Shown: positions 9,401-42,172 of the stretch, in pieces
How the letters are laid out: each line of letters starts with the position of its first letter
How positions within the stretch are numbered: position 1 is the first letter of the stretch
Assembly: GCF_051903065.1 (NCBI RefSeq)
Contig: NZ_CP178438.1
Reading direction: 5' to 3' (one strand)
Length of the DNA: 64,000 nucleotides
Source of the DNA: Escherichia coli
GTDB taxonomy: Bacteria > Pseudomonadota > Gammaproteobacteria > Enterobacterales > Enterobacteriaceae
The notes under the pieces: model-generated
Database searches by the model: none
The model's input: only the letters and a program-made list of their open reading frames with translations
What the model was told of the DNA's origin: nothing
Translations under genes and position numbers: made by a program

Positions 9401-10474
9401 ATGCGCCAGGAAACCCGCTTTAAATTTAATGCTTACCTGTCCCGTGTTGCCGAATTGAACGGCATCGACGCCGGTGATGTGTCGAAAAAATTCACCGTTG
9501 AACCGTCGGTCACCCAGACCCTGATGAACACCATGCAGGAGTCCTCTGACTTTCTGACCCGCATCAACATTGTGCCGGTCAGCGAAATGAAAGGGGAAAA
9601 AATTGGTATTGGTGTCACCGGCTCCATCGCCAGCACCACCGACACCGCCGGTGGCACCGAGCGTCAGCCGAAGGACTTCTCGAAGCTGGCGTCAAACAAG
9701 TACGAATGCGACCAGATTAACTTCGATTTTTATATCCGCTACAAAACGCTGGACCTGTGGGCGCGTTATCAGGATTTCCAGCTCCGTGTCCGTAACGCCA
9801 TTATCAAACGCCAGTCCCTTGATTTAATCATGGCCGGTTTTAACGGCGTGAGGCGTGCCGAAACCTCTGACCGCAGCAGTAACCCGATGCTGCAGGATGT
9901 GGCGGTCGGCTGGCTGCAGAAATACCGCAATGAAGCTCCGGCGCGCGTGATGAGCAAGGTCACTGACGAGGAAGGGCACACCACCTCTGAGGTCATCCGC
10001 GTGGGTAAGGGCGGTGATTATGCCAGCCTTGATGCACTGGTGATGGATGCGACCAACAACCTGATTGAGCCGTGGTATCAGGAAGACCCTGACCTTGTGG
10101 TGATTGTGGGACGTCAGCTACTGGCGGACAAGTATTTTCCCATCGTCAACAAGGAGCAGGACAACAGCGAAATGCTGGCCGCTGACGTCATCATCAGCCA
10201 GAAACGCATCGGCAACCTGCCAGCGGTACGCGTCCCGTACTTCCCGGCTGATGCGATGCTCATCACGAAGCTGGAAAACCTGTCCATCTACTACATGGAT
10301 GACAGCCATCGCCGCGTGATTGAGGAAAACCCGAAACTCGATCGCGTGGAGAACTACGAGTCAATGAACATTGATTACGTGGTGGAGGACTACGCCGCCG
10401 GTTGTCTGGTGGAAAAAATTAAGGTCGGTGATTTCTCCACACCGGCTAAAGCGACCGCAGAGCCGGGAGCGTAA
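9401..10474 (+). CDS. N: Major capsid protein gpN
   Basis: 357 aa, P2 gpN size and position. Confidence 0.9.
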   Translation: MRQETRFKFNAYLSRVAELNGIDAGDVSKKFTVEPSVTQTLMNTMQESSDFLTRINIVPVSEMKGEKIGIGVTGSIASTTDTAGGTERQPKDFSKLASNKYECDQINFDFYIRYKTLDLWARYQDFQLRVRNAIIKRQSLDLIMAGFNGVRRAETSDRSSNPMLQDVAVGWLQKYRNEAPARVMSKVTDEEGHTTSEVIRVGKGGDYASLDALVMDATNNLIEPWYQEDPDLVVIVGRQLLADKYFPIVNKEQDNSEMLAADVIISQKRIGNLPAVRVPYFPADAMLITKLENLSIYYMDDSHRRVIEENPKLDRVENYESMNIDYVVEDYAAGCLVEKIKVGDFSTPAKATAEPGA

Positions 10475-10477
10475 CCG

Positions 10478-11221
10478 ATGACGAGTCCCGCACAGCGCCA
10501 CATGATGCGGGTCTCGGCAGCGATGACCGCGCAGCGGGAAGCCGCCCCGCTGCGACATGCAACTGTCTATGAGCAGATGCTGGTTAAGCTGGCCGCAGAC
10601 CAGCGCACACTGAAAGCGATTTATTCAAAAGAGCTGAAGGCCGCGAAAAAACGCGAACTGCTGCCGTTCTGGTTGCCGTGGGTGAACGGCGTGCTGGAGC
10701 AGGGCAAAGGTGCACAGGATGACATTCTGATGACGGTCATGCTGTGGCGTCTGGATACCGGCGATATTGGCGGTGCGCTGGAGATTGCCCGTTATGCCCT
10801 GAAGTACGGTCTGACCATGCCGGGTAAACACCGCCGTACCCCGCCGTACATGTTCACCGAGGAGGTGGCGCTCGCGGCCATGCGCGCCCACGCTGCCGGT
10901 GAGTCTGTGGATACCCGCCTGCTGACGGAGACCCTTGAACTGACCGCCACGGCTGACATGCCTGATGAAGTGCGCGCAAAGCTGCACAAAATCACCGGTC
11001 TGCTTCTGCGTGATGGTGGTGATGCCGCCGGTGCGCTGGCTCACCTGCAACGTGCGACACAGCTCGACTGTCAGGCAGGTGTCAAAAAAGAGATTGAACG
11101 ACTGGAGCGGGAGCTGAAACCGAAGCCGGAGCCGCAGCCCAAAGCGGCCACCCGCGCCCCGCGTAAGACCCGGAGCGTGACACCGGCAAAACGTGGACGC
11201 CCGAAAAAGAAAGCCAGTTAA
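10478..11221 (+). CDS. M: Terminase small (endonuclease) subunit gpM
   Basis: 247 aa, position after N, basic C-terminus. Confidence 0.88.
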   Translation: MTSPAQRHMMRVSAAMTAQREAAPLRHATVYEQMLVKLAADQRTLKAIYSKELKAAKKRELLPFWLPWVNGVLEQGKGAQDDILMTVMLWRLDTGDIGGALEIARYALKYGLTMPGKHRRTPPYMFTEEVALAAMRAHAAGESVDTRLLTETLELTATADMPDEVRAKLHKITGLLLRDGGDAAGALAHLQRATQLDCQAGVKKEIERLERELKPKPEPQPKAATRAPRKTRSVTPAKRGRPKKKAS

Positions 11222-19830: not shown

Positions 19831-20358
19831 ATGCAGCATTTAAAGAACATTAAGTCAGGTAATCCAAAAACAAAAGAGCAATATCAGCTAACAAAGAATT
19901 TTGATGTTATCTGGTTATGGTCCGAAGACGGAAAAAACTGGTATGAGGAAGTAAGTAATTTTCAGCCAGACACAATAAAGATTGTTTACGATGAAAATAA
20001 TATTATTGTCGCCATCACCAGAGATGCTTCAACGCTTAATCCTGAAGGTTTTAGCGTCGTTGAGGTTCCTGATATTACTGCCAACCGGCGTGCTGATGAC
20101 TCAGGTAAATGGATGTTTAAGGATGGTGCCGTGATTAAGCGGATTTATACGGCAGACGAACAGCAGAAACTGGCGGAATTACATAAGGCAGCTTTGCTTT
20201 CCGAAGCTGAATCCGTGATTTTGCCGCTGGAGCGCGCGGTCAGGCTGAATATGGCAACAGATGAGGAGCGTAGTCGACTGGAGGCATGGGAACGCTATAG
20301 TGTTCTGGTCAGTCGTGTGGATCCTGCAAATCCTGAATGGCCGGAAATGCCGCAATAA
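19831..20358 (+). CDS. G: Tail fibre assembly chaperone gpG
   Basis: 175 aa [21 protein letters not shown]2 G-like. Confidence 0.88.
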
Positions 20359-20457
20359 GTTGTATGAGCTCTGGTGTGAGCTTACATATCTATGGCACAG
20401 AGTAAAGCCTAATCTGACAGTCCGTTCTGTGCCAGTAGCGGACGTTTGAATAAATTA

Positions 20458-20486
20458 TTGACTAACTAAAGTTTTTGGCATTAAAT
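20458..20486 (+). promoter_or_regulatory. Putative sigma70 promoter for the HEPN-motif cargo gene
   Basis: TTGACT, 17-bp spacer, TTAAAT; ~35 bp upstream of GGAG RBS and ATG 20527. Confidence 0.35.
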
Positions 20487-20526
20487 TTTCAATTAAAATG
20501 TTCGCATTGATTTATTGGAGTAAATA

Positions 20527-21480
20527 ATGGATATACATGCAAAAAGAGTTGGCAGTCCACTTTATAAAATTATTATGTACTTAAATAAGTATGAAGAAGA
20601 TACACTGGAAGACATAAAACTTCAGTTTCTTTTAAAAAATTTAAAAACTCATTTCAAGAAACTGTTTTATATGATTACTTACATTAATAAAATTCAAAAA
20701 GATGCTGAGTTCATCAGAAAACATGATGCAACATCAATTGTCAGCATTAGTGCTATTGAGTATTGCTATTATAAAATCAGCACGATATGGGATATTGCAT
20801 ATCAGATAGCTGATAAATTAATTTTCCCAACTAAAAAAAATGGCAATAAATATGATTACCTTGAAAATCATTTCCAGCAATATGCACAGGAATTTCCAGA
20901 TTTGAATTTAAAATGGTATAAGGACTTTAATAAAATAAGAAATAAGATAGTTCATGGAGGGATAACAGTAAATCCTTATTATGTCAACGATGATAATATT
21001 AAAACAAAGATTTGTTTCCAAGCATATGACTCTGATCTAAACGATCTGATTCAACCTCATATGATGTATTCAAATAGATTCAATAACAATATTAATTTTG
21101 CTGATTACTATTTTACCTTTTATACTCATCTTCTCTATTCATATCTTTTTGATTTTTTTGATTTTGTACTTCTTGAGCTAAACAAAGATAAATCACATGA
21201 TTTAGACAATCTTATTCTTGATGATATACCGCACAAATTGTTTGGTGCTCATCATGAAACATGGTTGTTATCTGATGTTGATCAATTTATGAAAATTACA
21301 AGAGAAATGATTTCCCTACAAATAGCTGATGGTTGTTTAAATAAAATTGAGAAAATACCCTCAAGTGATATTGAACATTTTTTTAACAACTTTCCATTTT
21401 GTCTTATGACAAAGGTTAGCTCCGGAGATTGGGTATTGGTTGAGGATAAAGCGGCTGAAACAAAGTCATCGGACACTTAA
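20527..21480 (+). CDS. HEPN-motif (Rx4H) protein, Abi-like candidate, cargo in the G-FI (Z/fun) hotspot
   Basis: 317 aa; very AT-rich, Lys/Asn/Tyr/Phe-rich; motif RNKIVHGG (R-x4-H); own promoter-like elements. Confidence 0.55.
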   Translation: MDIHAKRVGSPLYKIIMYLNKYEEDTLEDIKLQFLLKNLKTHFKKLFYMITYINKIQKDAEFIRKHDATSIVSISAIEYCYYKISTIWDIAYQIADKLIFPTKKNGNKYDYLENHFQQYAQEFPDLNLKWYKDFNKIRNKIVHGGITVNPYYVNDDNIKTKICFQAYDSDLNDLIQPHMMYSNRFNNNINFADYYFTFYTHLLYSYLFDFFDFVLLELNKDKSHDLDNLILDDIPHKLFGAHHETWLLSDVDQFMKITREMISLQIADGCLNKIEKIPSSDIEHFFNNFPFCLMTKVSSGDWVLVEDKAAETKSSDT

Positions 21481-21774
21481 ATTTTTTTTGTGCCAAAGTC
21501 TACTCCTCGCTCGTCACAGGCTTTGGCATTCGTTTCAACAACCAAGTGATAGCATATATTGTGACCTGCACCCCGTTGATTCATACATCCTCGATGTAAG
21601 CAATCCCTTGAGAACGTCCACTCCTCGCTCTTAGCAGATCACACGGTTCTTCAAACGATCCGCTTCGTACCAGAAACGAACTTTTATCTCAAATTTGAAC
21701 CTTTTAGTGGATGACGACGTTTGTGTCTTCAAGTAGTCTTAAAAGCATGCGGATAGTGCATAGGAAAAGCAGAA

Positions 21775-22611
21775 GTGATCGATGACCCACTACCAGAAAA
21801 CTGGCAAGACCTCCAGACAGGGGTCCAACGTATATTCCGTAATGTTGGCTTGTTTGCAGAAGTCGAGGTCGATTTAGAAACCCCGCGTGGCTCGGTGAAT
21901 GTGGATGTTCTTGCTACAGATGTTAGGAGCGTGGACAAAATCAGATACATTGTGGAATGCAAAAACTGGGGTAGTTCTATACCACAGACGGTGGTCCATT
22001 CGTTCACCACGGTAATGCATGAAACCGGGGCTAATATTGGATTTATTATTTCAAAGCACGGGCTTCAGCAGGGTGCTAAACAGTACACTCAAAACACCAA
22101 TATTATTGGGATGACATACCTTGAGTTCCAAAAAAGGTATTTTGAGGCTTGGTGGAATAGATACTTTTGTCCACGTATCGGTGATGCTGCAGACGAACCG
22201 CTTCAGTACGTCGAACCAATCAACTCTAAACGAGATCGCGAATACGCCAAGCTAAGCCTTCAAGCACAAGAGAAGTTCGATCAGTTAAGGCAAGAGAAAG
22301 GTGTATCAGTAGTGGTTCTCTCTATGCTCAATTACAAGTTTATGTCGAAAGCATTAAACACTGGTAACTTGCTGGAAGTCCCAAATAATCTGGATGATTT
22401 TAAGAACAGAGTTCTCTCCCGAATATGTCCTCACATTGAATGGCATTGTGATACGTACAGAGAGCTGCTAGAGCTCATCTTGCAATACTTATCAGTCACA
22501 AAAGCAGAGTTTGATGCAATATTTGGTCGGGCCATCTTTGAACCGCCAAGTAGTATCACGGGGGTTACGGCTGAAGGTCCCCCTTTAGACGATGGTATTT
22601 ATCATCATTAG
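21775..22611 (+). CDS. PD-(D/E)xK restriction-endonuclease-like (Mrr_cat-like) protein, cargo in the G-FI hotspot
   Basis: 278 aa, GTG start; N-terminal VNVDVLATD ... YIVECKNW (D ... E-x-K nuclease signature). Confidence 0.55.
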   Translation: MIDDPLPENWQDLQTGVQRIFRNVGLFAEVEVDLETPRGSVNVDVLATDVRSVDKIRYIVECKNWGSSIPQTVVHSFTTVMHETGANIGFIISKHGLQQGAKQYTQNTNIIGMTYLEFQKRYFEAWWNRYFCPRIGDAADEPLQYVEPINSKRDREYAKLSLQAQEKFDQLRQEKGVSVVVLSMLNYKFMSKALNTGNLLEVPNNLDDFKNRVLSRICPHIEWHCDTYRELLELILQYLSVTKAEFDAIFGRAIFEPPSSITGVTAEGPPLDDGIYHH

Positions 22612-22732
22612 TTTCATACATAAACCATGCTCCCGCATGTCCGCATTTCGCTCAAAGCAGACTGTCAGATTTGATAGCGTTTGGGCTATGTAAACTGTCA
22701 GTCGGAAAATGAGTGTGTGCAAATCAGGACAG

Positions 22733-22760
22733 GCGGGCGAATTGCCCGCATTTTCTTTAT
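22733..22760 (+). terminator. Rho-independent terminator after the G-FI cargo genes
   Basis: GCGGGC-GAATT-GCCCGC followed by TTTTCTTTAT. Confidence 0.6.
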
Positions 22761-22762
22761 CT

Positions 22763-22772
22763 GTTGTTTCAT
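22763..22772 (+). promoter_or_regulatory. Late-promoter-associated motif TGTTGTTTCA upstream of FI (P_F region)
   Basis: ~92 bp upstream of FI start; third copy of the TGTTGT(G/T)TCA motif. Confidence 0.45.
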
Positions 22773-22854
22773 CCACTGACCAGCCAGGTCAAATGGCGTC
22801 TCATGCACTGCCCAACAGAAAATAGTTGCACCCATTAACCACGGAGTTAAACGG

Positions 22855-24045
22855 ATGAGCGACTATCATCATGGCGTGCAGGTGCTGGAGATTAACGACG
22901 GCACCCGCGTCATTTCCACCGTATCCACTGCCATTGTCGGCATGGTCTGCACGGCCAGCGATGCGGATGCGGAAATCTTCCCCCTCAATAAACCGGTGCT
23001 GATTACCAATGTGCAGAGCGCAATTGCAAAGGCCGGTAAAAAAGGCACGCTGGCGGCATCGTTGCAGGCCATCGCCGACCAGTCAAAACCGGTCACAGTT
23101 GTCGTGCGCGTGGAAGACGGCACCGGCGATGACGAAGAAACGAAACTCGCGCAGACCGTTTCCAATATCATCGGCACCACCGACGAAAACGGTCAGTACA
23201 CCGGACTGAAAGCCCTGCTGGCGGCGGAGTCGGTAACCGGTGTTAAACCGCGTATTCTCGGCGTGCCGGGACTGGACACCAAAGAGGTGGCTGTTGCACT
23301 GGCATCAGTCTGTCAGAAGCTGCGCGCTTTCGGGTATATCAGCGCATGGGGCTGTAAAACCATTTCCGAGGTGAAAGCCTACCGTCAGAATTTCAGCCAG
23401 CGTGAGCTGATGGTCATCTGGCCGGATTTCCTCGCATGGGATACGGTCAGCAGCACCACCGCCACCGCGTATGCCACCGCCCGTGCGCTGGGTCTGCGCG
23501 CTAAAATCGACCAGGAGCAGGGCTGGCATAAAACGCTGTCCAATGTCGGGGTAAACGGTGTTACCGGCATCAGTGCTTCTGTATTCTGGGATTTGCAGGA
23601 GTCCGGCACCGATGCTGACCTGCTTAACGAGTCAGGCGTCACTACGCTGATTCGTCGCGACGGTTTCCGATTCTGGGGTAACCGTACCTGCTCTGATGAC
23701 CCGCTGTTCCTCTTTGAAAACTACACCCGCACCGCGCAGGTGCTGGCCGACACGATGGCTGAGGCGCACATGTGGGCGGTGGACAAGCCCATCACCGCAA
23801 CGCTGATTCGCGACATCGTTGACGGCATCAATGCCAAATTCCGTGAGCTGAAAACAAACGGCTATATCGTGGATGCGACCTGCTGGTTCAGCGAAGAATC
23901 CAACGATGCGGAAACCCTCAAGGCCGGAAAACTGTATATCGACTACGACTATACACCGGTGCCTCCTCTCGAAAACCTGACCCTGCGCCAGCGTATTACC
24001 GATAAATACCTGGCAAATCTGGTCACCTCGGTTAACAGCAATTAA
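22855..24045 (+). CDS. FI: Tail sheath protein FI
   Basis: 396 aa, P2 FI-like. Confidence 0.9.
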   Translation: MSDYHHGVQVLEINDGTRVISTVSTAIVGMVCTASDADAEIFPLNKPVLITNVQSAIAKAGKKGTLAASLQAIADQSKPVTVVVRVEDGTGDDEETKLAQTVSNIIGTTDENGQYTGLKALLAAESVTGVKPRILGVPGLDTKEVAVALASVCQKLRAFGYISAWGCKTISEVKAYRQNFSQRELMVIWPDFLAWDTVSSTTATAYATARALGLRAKIDQEQGWHKTLSNVGVNGVTGISASVFWDLQESGTDADLLNESGVTTLIRRDGFRFWGNRTCSDDPLFLFENYTRTAQVLADTMAEAHMWAVDKPITATLIRDIVDGINAKFRELKTNGYIVDATCWFSEESNDAETLKAGKLYIDYDYTPVPPLENLTLRQRITDKYLANLVTSVNSN

Positions 24046-40498: not shown

Positions 40499-42172
40499 AT
40501 GACTGAATCTTTTGCTCAACTCTTTGAAGAGTCCTTAAAAGAAATCGAAACCCGCCCGGGTTCTATCGTTCGTGGCGTTGTTGTTGCTATCGACAAAGAT
40601 GTAGTACTGGTTGACGCTGGTCTGAAATCTGAGTCCGCCATCCCGGCTGAGCAGTTCAAAAACGCCCAGGGCGAGCTGGAAATCCAGGTAGGTGACGAAG
40701 TTGACGTTGCTCTGGACGCAGTAGAAGACGGCTTCGGTGAAACTCTGCTGTCCCGTGAGAAAGCTAAACGTCACGAAGCCTGGATCACGCTGGAAAAAGC
40801 TTACGAAGATGCTGAAACTGTTACCGGTGTTATCAACGGCAAAGTTAAGGGCGGCTTCACTGTTGAGCTGAACGGTATTCGTGCGTTCCTGCCAGGTTCT
40901 CTGGTAGACGTTCGTCCGGTGCGTGACACTCTGCACCTGGAAGGCAAAGAGCTTGAATTTAAAGTAATCAAGCTGGATCAGAAGCGCAACAACGTTGTTG
41001 TTTCTCGTCGTGCCGTTATCGAATCCGAAAACAGCGCAGAGCGCGATCAGCTGCTGGAAAACCTGCAGGAAGGCATGGAAGTTAAAGGTATCGTTAAGAA
41101 CCTCACTGACTACGGTGCATTCGTTGATCTGGGCGGCGTTGACGGCCTGCTGCACATCACTGACATGGCCTGGAAACGCGTTAAGCATCCGAGCGAAATC
41201 GTCAACGTGGGCGACGAAATCACTGTTAAAGTGCTGAAGTTCGACCGCGAACGTACCCGTGTATCCCTGGGCCTGAAACAGCTGGGCGAAGATCCGTGGG
41301 TAGCTATCGCTAAACGTTATCCGGAAGGTACCAAACTGACTGGTCGCGTGACCAACCTGACCGACTACGGCTGCTTCGTTGAAATCGAAGAAGGCGTTGA
41401 AGGCCTGGTACACGTTTCCGAAATGGATTGGACCAACAAAAACATCCACCCGTCCAAAGTTGTTAACGTTGGCGATGTAGTGGAAGTTATGGTTCTGGAT
41501 ATCGACGAAGAACGTCGTCGTATCTCCCTGGGTCTGAAACAGTGCAAAGCTAACCCGTGGCAGCAGTTCGCGGAAACCCACAATAAGGGCGACCGTGTTG
41601 AAGGTAAAATCAAGTCTATCACTGACTTCGGTATCTTCATCGGCCTGGACGGCGGCATCGACGGCCTGGTTCACCTGTCTGACATCTCCTGGAACGTTGC
41701 AGGCGAAGAAGCAGTTCGTGAATACAAAAAAGGCGACGAAATCGCTGCAGTTGTTCTGCAGGTTGACGCAGAACGTGAACGTATCTCCCTGGGCGTTAAA
41801 CAGCTCGCAGAAGATCCGTTCAACAACTGGGTTGCTCTGAACAAGAAAGGCGCTATCGTAACCGGTAAAGTAACTGCAGTTGACGCTAAAGGCGCAACCG
41901 TAGAACTGGCTGACGGCGTTGAAGGTTACCTGCGTGCTTCTGAAGCATCCCGTGACCGCGTTGAAGACGCTACCCTGGTTCTGAGCGTTGGCGACGAAGT
42001 TGAAGCTAAATTCACCGGCGTTGATCGTAAAAACCGTGCAATCAGCCTGTCTGTTCGTGCGAAAGACGAAGCTGACGAGAAAGATGCAATCGCAACTGTT
42101 AACAAACAGGAAGATGCAAACTTCTCCAACAACGCAATGGCTGAAGCTTTCAAAGCAGCTAAAGGCGAGTAA
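40499..42172 (+). CDS. rpsA: 30S ribosomal protein S1
   Basis: 557 aa, repeated S1 domains. Confidence 0.98.

Follow-up and report, generated by a model that had tools for sequence, protein, structure and literature searches.

What does the 294-nt spacer (21481-21774) between two cargo genes of a P2-like prophage consist of, and why does the same 11-mer occur in it twice? The spacer runs from a TAA stop codon (21478-80) to a GTG start codon at 21775, in a 64-kb window of Escherichia coli DNA (the window being the whole stretch that was analysed), and lies in the Z/fun (G/FI) variable region between phage genes G and FI. The genes of the locus are as follows.

19831-20358: gene G, tail-fibre assembly (Caudo_TAP)
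20527-21480, plus strand: upstream cargo gene, 317 aa, AT-rich; family kept across homologues, with no family match
21775-22611, plus strand: gene of an Mrr_cat-domain 'restriction endonuclease', 278 aa, GTG start (Pfam PF04471, E = 4e-11)
22855-24045: gene FI, sheath

GC content was 24-30% in the 317-aa gene and 40-49% in the spacer and nuclease gene, in agreement with the description in the initial annotation of a GC-normal spacer beside an AT-rich gene. The 317-aa product had also been labelled HEPN; an RNKIVH (Rx4H) motif is present, but no Pfam, NCBIfam, PADLOC, PHROG or PDB match backs the label, and all 70 homologues of the protein are named 'hypothetical protein' and carry no Pfam domain. 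Searches of both cargo proteins against PADLOC, NCBIfam, PHROG and PDB returned nothing past the Mrr_cat domain.

Inverted repeats reportedly flank the Z/fun (G-FI) region of P2-like phages (Nilsson, Karlsson & Haggard-Ljungquist 2004, Mol Biol Evol 21:1, doi 10.1093/molbev/msg223). The GenBank record of P2-EC31 (AJ512677) annotates a 'left/right inverted repeat' around cargo at the G/FI locus, and the window equivalents were found at 20360-20443 and from 22639 onward. In the part of PMC8987985 that cites Nilsson et al. 2004, the hotspot repeats are described as enabling site-specific recombination and the exchange of fun between phages and bacteria.

From sequence comparison, the spacer is probably made up of several fossil cassette boundaries in a row with a live promoter behind them, the activity of which is predicted from its sequence. 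Neither an RNA gene nor in itself a new element, it is explained by relics of the known inverted-repeat (IR) family and a promoter downstream. Cargo at G/FI (Z/fun) would be carried as promoter-containing cassettes, each between an L-type and an R-type element of ~24 nt in inverted orientation, and each element would consist of GTCCGCTC, an 8-nt centre (TGTGCCAG in the left type, CTCGCTCA in the right type) and GAGCGGAC. Two tandem cassettes would be present here, in the order L site, 317-aa gene, c1, ~80 nt of remnant, truncated c2, linker, decayed L relic, promoter, nuclease gene and R site, with the c1 hairpin as the site that closes the cassette of the upstream gene on the right and the final 88 nt as the sigma-70 promoter and ribosome-binding site of the nuclease gene. 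The 11-mer would appear twice because it comprises the inner-arm end and central region of a right-type site. The features to which these names refer are listed below; arms and centres are given in the order of the coordinates.

20420-20443: true L-type boundary site, outer arm GTCCGTTC, centre TGTGCCAG, inner arm TAGCGGAC (L profile E = 5e-19)
21482-21489, plus strand: run of eight T right after the stop codon and 5' of the hairpin; common to the cassette of locus L283 (described below)
21490-21529, plus strand: hairpin found by folding, 12-bp stem (one G-U pair), 16-nt loop holding the first 11-mer
21495-21521, plus strand: c1, putative R-type relic, AAA GTCTACTC, CTCGCTCG, TCACAGGC (18/26 of the R consensus)
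21530-21612: unassigned remnant, maybe the 3' tail of a lost cassette, with no conserved ORF
21613-21639, plus strand: c2, R-type relic with the second 11-mer, AAC GTCCACTC, CTCGCTCT, TAGCAGAT (23/26 of the R consensus over 21613-38)
21640-21657: linker between c2 and the L relic
about 21658-21681: putative L-type relic of the nuclease cassette, ATCCGCTT, CGTACCAG, AAACGAAC (L profile, minus strand)
21687-21774, plus strand: predicted nuclease promoter and leader, -35 ATGACG (21711-16), 17-nt spacer, -10 TAGTCT (21734-39), Shine-Dalgarno AGGA (21762-65)
22639-22662: true R-type boundary site, GTCCGCAT, TTCGCTCA, AAGCAGAC (R profile E = 2e-18)

The hairpin and the 11-mer are real and non-random. 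An inverted repeat at 21491-21528 enclosing the 11-mer had been reported from the letters; it is present, with TGCCAAAG at 21491-21498, CTTTGGCA at 21521-21528 and ACTCCTCGCTC (21502-21512) in between, and the real stem is longer (12 bp, 21490-21529; dG -15.6 kcal/mol, z = -4.4, equalled by none of 200 shuffles). The second copy of the 11-mer was located at 21620-21630, one base from the earlier estimate of about 21619-21629. Both copies are part of a 25-nt direct repeat (21495-21519 and 21613-21637, 20/25 identical). Dinucleotide shuffling of the spacer produced an exact 11-mer repeat in 18/1000 and a 20/25 repeat in 0/1000 shuffles, and 5 repeat pairs of the 20/25 type were counted across the whole window vs 0.2 expected. 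A larger tandem duplication holding c1 and c2 was rejected, similarity being limited to 25 nt. Viral contigs scanned with GTCYACTCCTCGCTC gave 120 mostly unrelated single matches, which were uninformative; among the matches listed, this phage alone had two copies.

Site profiles were derived from the known repeats. IMG/VR was scanned for the core CWAATCTGACAGTCYG, which gave ~100 distinct IR arms from P2-like contigs. The inner-end consensus of the right arms was aAcGTCcGCTcCTCGCTCAAAG followed by CAGACTGTCAG (also as aAcGTCcGCTcCTCGCTCAAAG followed by CAGACTGTCAGATTTG; right-arm consensus AACGTCCGCTCCTCGCTCAAAGCAGAC), and that of the left arms, as the reverse complement, was aAyGTCCGCTctTGGCACAGAG followed by CGGACTGTCAG. 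Consensus L-type sites read GTCCGCTC, TGTGCCAG and GAGCGGAC; consensus R-type sites read GTCCGCTC, CTCGCTCA and AAGCRGAC, and the two centres differ at 2/8 positions. R and L profiles were built from these arms with every locus carrying this spacer left out. Across the 64-kb window, c2 ranked third (E = 0.005), after the true R and true L sites, and c1 alone was weak (E = 1.9). Within the spacer, E values were 4.7e-5 for c2, 0.004-0.008 for the L relic (minus strand, 21659-85) and 0.02-0.03 for c1. By sequence, c2 belongs to the IR family, and c1 and the L relic more weakly appear to belong to it. Smith-Waterman alignment of the spacer with the IRs of the window itself gave no significant score (54/500 and 136/500 shuffles did as well); the match is clear only against the family consensus.

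The true sites are bounded on the outside by the P2 backbone, with core CTAATCTGACA directly before the L site and core TGTCAGATTTG directly after the R site. The outer core CTGTCAGATT / AATCTGACAG was found only at these true ends (20410-19 and 22663-72) and was absent at c1, c2 and the L relic; the spacer copies are thus relics or half-sites and not full IRs. c1, which closes the cassette of the upstream gene on its 3' side, has an intact inner arm and a centre identical to the R type at 7/8 positions. The centre of c2 is likewise 7/8, and c2 ends where the outer core would start; its 15-mer GTCCACTCCTCGCTC was found again in two R sites, one inside another P2 hotspot (L141) and one beside the integrase in L291. 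Taken as 20 nt (21639-21658), the linker is 13/20 identical to the equivalent 20 nt of L141. The distance between the L relic and the nuclease start codon equals that of the true left IR in L004, L021 and L015, a comparison that covers Buttiauxella, Phytobacter and another P2-like contig. Together, c2 and the L relic form an imperfect palindrome (dG -30.5 kcal/mol, z -2.3). In a lambdoid copy (H8), the L-relic stretch is a perfect 9-bp hairpin without a T tract; the window has a degraded stem with TTTTATCTC after it, perhaps a terminator-like feature in decay. At c1 and c2 the outer arms are degenerate, as are both arms of the L relic. Both 11-mer copies are thus degenerate right-type IR copies with a left-type relic after the second, in line with the 'relic of a recombination junction' that the initial annotation had put forward.

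The hotspot sites can be read as an 8-nt arm, an 8-nt centre and an 8-nt arm (11-8-11 with AAC and GTT flanks) and have the architecture of tyrosine-recombinase core sites, with two inverted arms and a 6-8-bp centre. Covariation between the site arms (6-bp stems) was looked for and none was found, C/T and G/A combining freely; the arms therefore do not point to selection for an RNA or DNA hairpin, and the pattern fits protein recognition rather than an RNA stem. Sites inside hotspots were searched for in 26 distinct P2 hotspots with both cores. Internal sites of at least 7 bits were nearly all in long multi-gene hotspots (at least 3.3 kb), the exception being this 2.3-kb cassette; internal R or L sites in spacers after cargo genes were found in L141, L174, L281 and L201.

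The extent of DNA held in common with other loci was then used to delimit the parts of the spacer. The spacer is present in 8/5426 complete E. coli genomes. Seven carry the same P2 cassette (99.7-100% identity) and are for that reason uninformative on selection. The eighth (NZ_CP015912) carries a lambdoid prophage in which the common DNA is only 21562-22662, that is, the nuclease gene and 213 nt upstream; homology with the lambdoid copy (H8/L002), as with L009, starts at 21562. Buttiauxella and Morganella have 21687-22675 in common with the window, and the true left IR of Buttiauxella sits at the place of the L relic. Nuclease homologues in 35 further loci gave nested upstream boundaries at 21687 (Buttiauxella plasmid, Morganella), 21691, 21726, 21732 and, in many, 21751-63; the 317-aa gene was never beside the nuclease homologues in those loci. 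An 88%-identical homologue of the 317-aa gene was found in a non-P2 context between TerD and PRTase/OLD-like genes (L283). Its common DNA with the window (20431-21512) ends right after the first ACTCCTCGCTC copy (through CTCGCTC), so that c1 travels with the 317-aa gene there; past 21512, L283 runs into an outer arm, linker and L site of its own. The boundary pattern assigns the first ~30 nt of the spacer to the upstream gene and the last ~90-210 nt to the nuclease gene.

Breakpoints fell at the centre or outer arm of a site in three clean comparisons, a small number of independent ones for a test of hybrid sites: 21512 in L283, and 20428 (the central TGTGCCAG) and ~22659-63 (inside the outer arm) in the non-P2 locus L006, where homology to the window starts and ends. 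The two-gene block 20420-22663 also occurs in a non-P2 context with its breakpoints at site centres. The nuclease gene keeps the inner arm and centre of its R site in P2, lambdoid, chromosomal and plasmid contexts, and the outer arm and flank vary. Between the window and H8, divergence was 10.5% (13/124) over 21562-21685, 2.2% (2/89) in the promoter and 2.3% (19/837) in coding sequence, with 12/19 of the coding differences at third codon positions. The distal spacer thus diverges ~4-5 times faster than coding sequence and also faster than synonymous sites, and a divergence of 10.5% vs 2.2-2.3% indicates that the junction sites are without detectable constraint. We infer that these sites were made by site-specific recombination and are now non-functional relics.

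The two cargo genes are independent cassettes and not a two-gene system. They are always paired in the seven E. coli genomes with the P2 cassette, among which no single-cassette variant was seen. That both genes form one system was considered and rejected: no other nuclease locus has the 317-aa gene, and the nuclease gene is missing from the other contexts of the 317-aa gene. More than 35 loci hold nuclease homologues, and the genes next to them are unrelated. Each cargo gene would have its own promoter and its own boundary sites, which bears on hotspot annotation and on anti-phage testing.

The 3' third of the spacer, which the initial annotation had overlooked, appears to be the nuclease gene's own promoter. 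Upstream regions (95 nt, with the first 20 coding nt) of 12 homologues from E. coli to Pseudomonas were aligned. The consensus was a -35 element (A/T)(T/G)GACG, a 17-nt spacer and a -10 element TAnnnT; in the 12 sequences, little or no variation was seen at GACG (21713-16), at the first, second and last base of TAGTCT, or at the Shine-Dalgarno GG. A sigma-70 promoter would thereby be placed ahead of the nuclease gene, with transcription predicted to begin near 21746 and to give a leader of ~28 nt. A simple consensus scan (at least 9/12 matches) did not list a promoter at 21711-21739.

A small regulatory RNA, which the initial annotation had entertained, or a structured cis-regulatory leader such as an antitoxin-like RNA would account for the strong local hairpin and for the lack of a credible ORF in 294 nt. 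The spacer was indeed not explained by any ORF: those found were short and unconserved, and a 24-aa ORF (21711-21785) was not kept in the Pseudomonas homologues. Its description as structured, however, holds for the local hairpin (z = -4.4) and not for the whole, which folded no better than shuffles (z = 0.06 on the plus strand, -0.81 on the minus strand). An Rfam 15 scan of 20300-23000 gave no spacer match at E <= 10 (four chance-level matches fell outside the spacer), and Rfam did not match the composite elements found elsewhere (described below). The covariance that had been proposed as a check was not found: RNAalifold returned 0 conserved pairs in the 12-sequence upstream alignment, which covers the only part kept across genera, and the site stems do not covary. 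The distal part diverges fast, the spacer's two halves differ in their evolutionary partners, and neither cargo gene retains the spacer in other contexts. An RNA is on this evidence a very remote prospect, and for this window a candidate RNA or regulatory element is removed. About as improbable is that the hairpin is merely the intrinsic terminator of the upstream gene and that the second 11-mer arose by chance. The hairpin resembles Rho-independent terminators in its stable stem and its place just past the stop codon (it begins 10 nt after it, with TTCGTTTC following), and an exact 11-mer repeat by itself was obtained in 1.8% of shuffles. The whole 20/25 repeat was nevertheless obtained in none of 1000, and both 11-mer copies fit, in register, a family consensus derived independently of them. 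The hairpin also departs from intrinsic terminators in its 16-nt loop (vs 3-8 nt), in a T8 run that lies upstream, on the wrong side, and in a weak U tract downstream (only TTCGTTTC), and a terminator scan of 21481-21774 called no terminator. Its 3' arm is a perfect complement of the gene-proximal flank, is not common to L283 and does not come from the site consensus; a terminator or 3' stabiliser under selection could account for it, or else quasi-palindrome correction. The terminator that the initial annotation had suggested may hold for the c1 hairpin alone, which may serve as a weak terminator or 3' stabiliser.

The sites in the spacer might instead be still active, and used in trans by a small tyrosine recombinase, encoded elsewhere in the host, for excision, insertion or swapping of the two cassettes. 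The intact inner arm of c1, the 7/8 centres of c1 and c2, the transfer of block 20420-22663 into a non-P2 context with breakpoints at site centres, and a cognate-looking integrase in 973/5426 E. coli genomes are as expected of such sites. Degenerate outer arms at c1 and c2, the decay of both arms of the L relic, divergence faster than at synonymous sites, the lack of an integrase in the 64-kb window and the constant pairing of the two genes in seven E. coli genomes speak against them, and we regard continued activity as unlikely, if less so than an RNA or a terminator. Fossil boundaries ahead of a promoter are thus retained as the preferred reading of the spacer.

A candidate for the enzyme that made such boundaries was found elsewhere. 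Well-preserved composites of ~75 nt, consisting of an R site, a linker of ~18-20 nt and an L site, lie between accessory genes in many prophage contigs. They are present in 990/5426 E. coli genomes (median one place per genome, at most 4) and are unannotated; the contexts inspected were prophage accessory regions, and two of these contexts hold a 200-aa PF00589 'site-specific integrase'. Integrase homologues at least 83% identical are flanked alike in 15/15 viral loci (9 distinct arrangements): the start codon is preceded at ~66 nt by an R-type site, the stop codon is followed at 27-29 nt by an L-type site, and strong sites lie 1-3 kb away on either side. Around the integrase gene, variable sequence gives way on the left, at TCGCTCA, to a near-invariant stretch, and the sequence becomes variable again after CCTGTGCCA on the right. 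Homologues at 60% identity have a different but analogous downstream site. The integrase unit is present in 973/5426 E. coli genomes (~18%), and its best NCBIfam score is 54.6 bits vs a cut-off of 220 (XerA/integron-integrase model). The gene is absent from the 64-kb window, a lack of recombinase that fits the decay of the window's internal sites. From these sequences we infer hybrid sites left by site-specific recombination, for which the 200-aa enzyme would be the cognate recombinase.

More tentatively, and at somewhat less than even odds in our judgement, the hotspot inverted repeats, including the spacer hairpin and 11-mer, may serve a cassette-shuffling system as its core-type sites. Its enzyme would be the 200-aa tyrosine recombinase, which has the catalytic domain only and would lie with an R-type site on one side and an L-type site on the other, in the place of the ~18-nt linker; accessory or defence genes with promoters of their own would be the cassettes, each bounded by complementary site halves. 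By exchange of R with R or of L with L, a cassette would pass from one P2 hotspot, lambdoid prophage, plasmid or chromosome to another; P2 prophages would be CALIN-like arrays that lack a recombinase and have internal sites that decay as in this spacer. In hotspots of P2, lambdoid and other prophages, short recognisable boundary sites show where a cassette ends and could be used to delimit defence-gene units, and the pairing offers a candidate enzyme and site for the open question of how cargo is exchanged among prophage hotspots. If the 200-aa recombinase acts on these sites, hotspot cargo exchange is directly testable. A literature search found no description of the integrase-plus-site pairing, Nilsson et al. 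2004 being outside its scope.

The arrangement was compared with four known families of repeats. With the P2 Z/fun inverted repeats it has locus and sequence family in common: the true L (20420-43) and R (22639-62) sites of the window are these repeats, and c1, c2 and the L relic would be degenerate copies of their inner ends, differing in that they are internal, between two cargo genes, and lack the outer core CTGTCAGATT.

Integrons offer a second likeness. Clusters of attC sites without an integrase are known as CALINs. Like these, the hotspots have single-gene cassettes in arrays separated by imperfect palindromes of ~75 nt (R-linker-L here), a gene-proximal site half that travels with the gene, boundaries inside the site, arrays without a recombinase in cis (P2 here) and AAC and GTT triplets at the site edges. 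The recombinase here is, however, a 200-aa catalytic-domain-only tyrosine recombinase and not IntI, and the cassettes carry their own promoters and each have two inverted sites with different centres. The boxes of attC sites read RYYYAAC / GTTRRRY; TGAGAAC, the heptamer that precedes c2, departs from RYYYAAC.

In Xer-dependent pdif modules of Acinetobacter plasmids, short inverted core-type sites of tyrosine recombinases flank cargo, and adjacent modules alternate in orientation. Hotspot cargo likewise lies between inverted copies of a short core-type site, and its neighbouring modules alternate in orientation too. The sites here are 8-8-8 (or 11-8-11 with flanks) vs 11-6-11 for dif and differ in sequence, neighbouring cassettes are separated by two sites and a linker and not by one common site, and a dedicated small recombinase is associated with them rather than host XerC/XerD. 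REPIN-RAYT systems, finally, also have a recombinase gene between inverted hairpin repeats and doublets without the gene, comparable to R-linker-L. The enzyme here belongs, however, to the phage-integrase family PF00589 and not to the HUH Y1 transposases, and the elements occur at about one copy per genome (maximum 4) and not in hundreds, between prophage accessory genes.

A 200-aa, catalytic-domain-only tyrosine recombinase, flanked by R-type and L-type sites, was found in prophage accessory arrays and is absent from the 64-kb window. The recombinase unit was present in 973 of 5426 complete E. coli genomes. Homologues at 60% identity carried a different but analogous site downstream (...GACCGTCGCTAACCGGCCAGAAGCGGA), which hints that enzyme and site co-vary. 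The loci concerned were as follows.

L289:5541-6140 and L290:5112-5714, 200-aa recombinase; also in comparison loci L291-L305
L308, L309, L311 and L331, integrase homologue with site ...GACCGTCGCTAACCGGCCAGAAGCGGA on its downstream side

A sok antitoxin RNA (RF01794, 111.7 bits) was located at 10365-10539 of comparison locus L099, ~1.9 kb from the small integrase, and a hok/sok module therefore appears to belong to the integrase array of that locus.

The 317-aa cargo gene is uninterrupted in the window. Of the seven E. coli genomes with the same cassette, five have it split into two annotated CDS by a 1-nt frameshift. The hotspot of L001 (NZ_CP099752) is 15 nt longer because the inner arm of its right boundary site has grown to three GTCCGCAT units in tandem. 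Corresponding features were as follows.

20527-21480 (+), 317-aa gene in the window; counterpart at L001:3048-4000
22639-22646, window equivalent of the L001 right-site inner arm

Just outside the right inverted repeat, between it and the FI sheath gene, a canonical terminator-like hairpin was seen at 22733-22749 (GCGGGCGAATTGCCCGC then ATTTTCTTT). In L283, a non-P2 context, a perfect palindrome at ~2360-2395 (GTGTGCTGTCAG-TTTTCA-CTGACAGCACAC) directly adjoins, on the outer side, the left site of the cassette that carries the 317-aa gene; part of this left site is deleted. The palindrome includes CTGTCAG, a motif of the outer P2 core.

The entire two-gene block (window 20420-22663) and, separately, the nuclease cassette alone were also found outside the P2 hotspot, in the following loci.

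L045, IMGVR_UViG_2778260994_000003, two-gene block
L021, Phytobacter ursingii, nuclease cassette alone

In L045 the block is flanked by genes of the host (DUF2254, BCCT transporter) and by prophage genes that are not of P2 type (DUF968, a DNA methylase). On the Phytobacter chromosome, the nuclease cassette alone adjoins hemB and is followed by an R-linker-L composite (R-type site, ~18-nt linker, L-type site).

Further direct repeats matching at 20 of 25 positions, with copies <300 nt apart, were seen in the window at 41256-41790, 9126/9384 and 12945/13119. Those at ~41.3–41.8 kb form two adjacent pairs with a period of 261 nt and probably reflect repetition within a protein.
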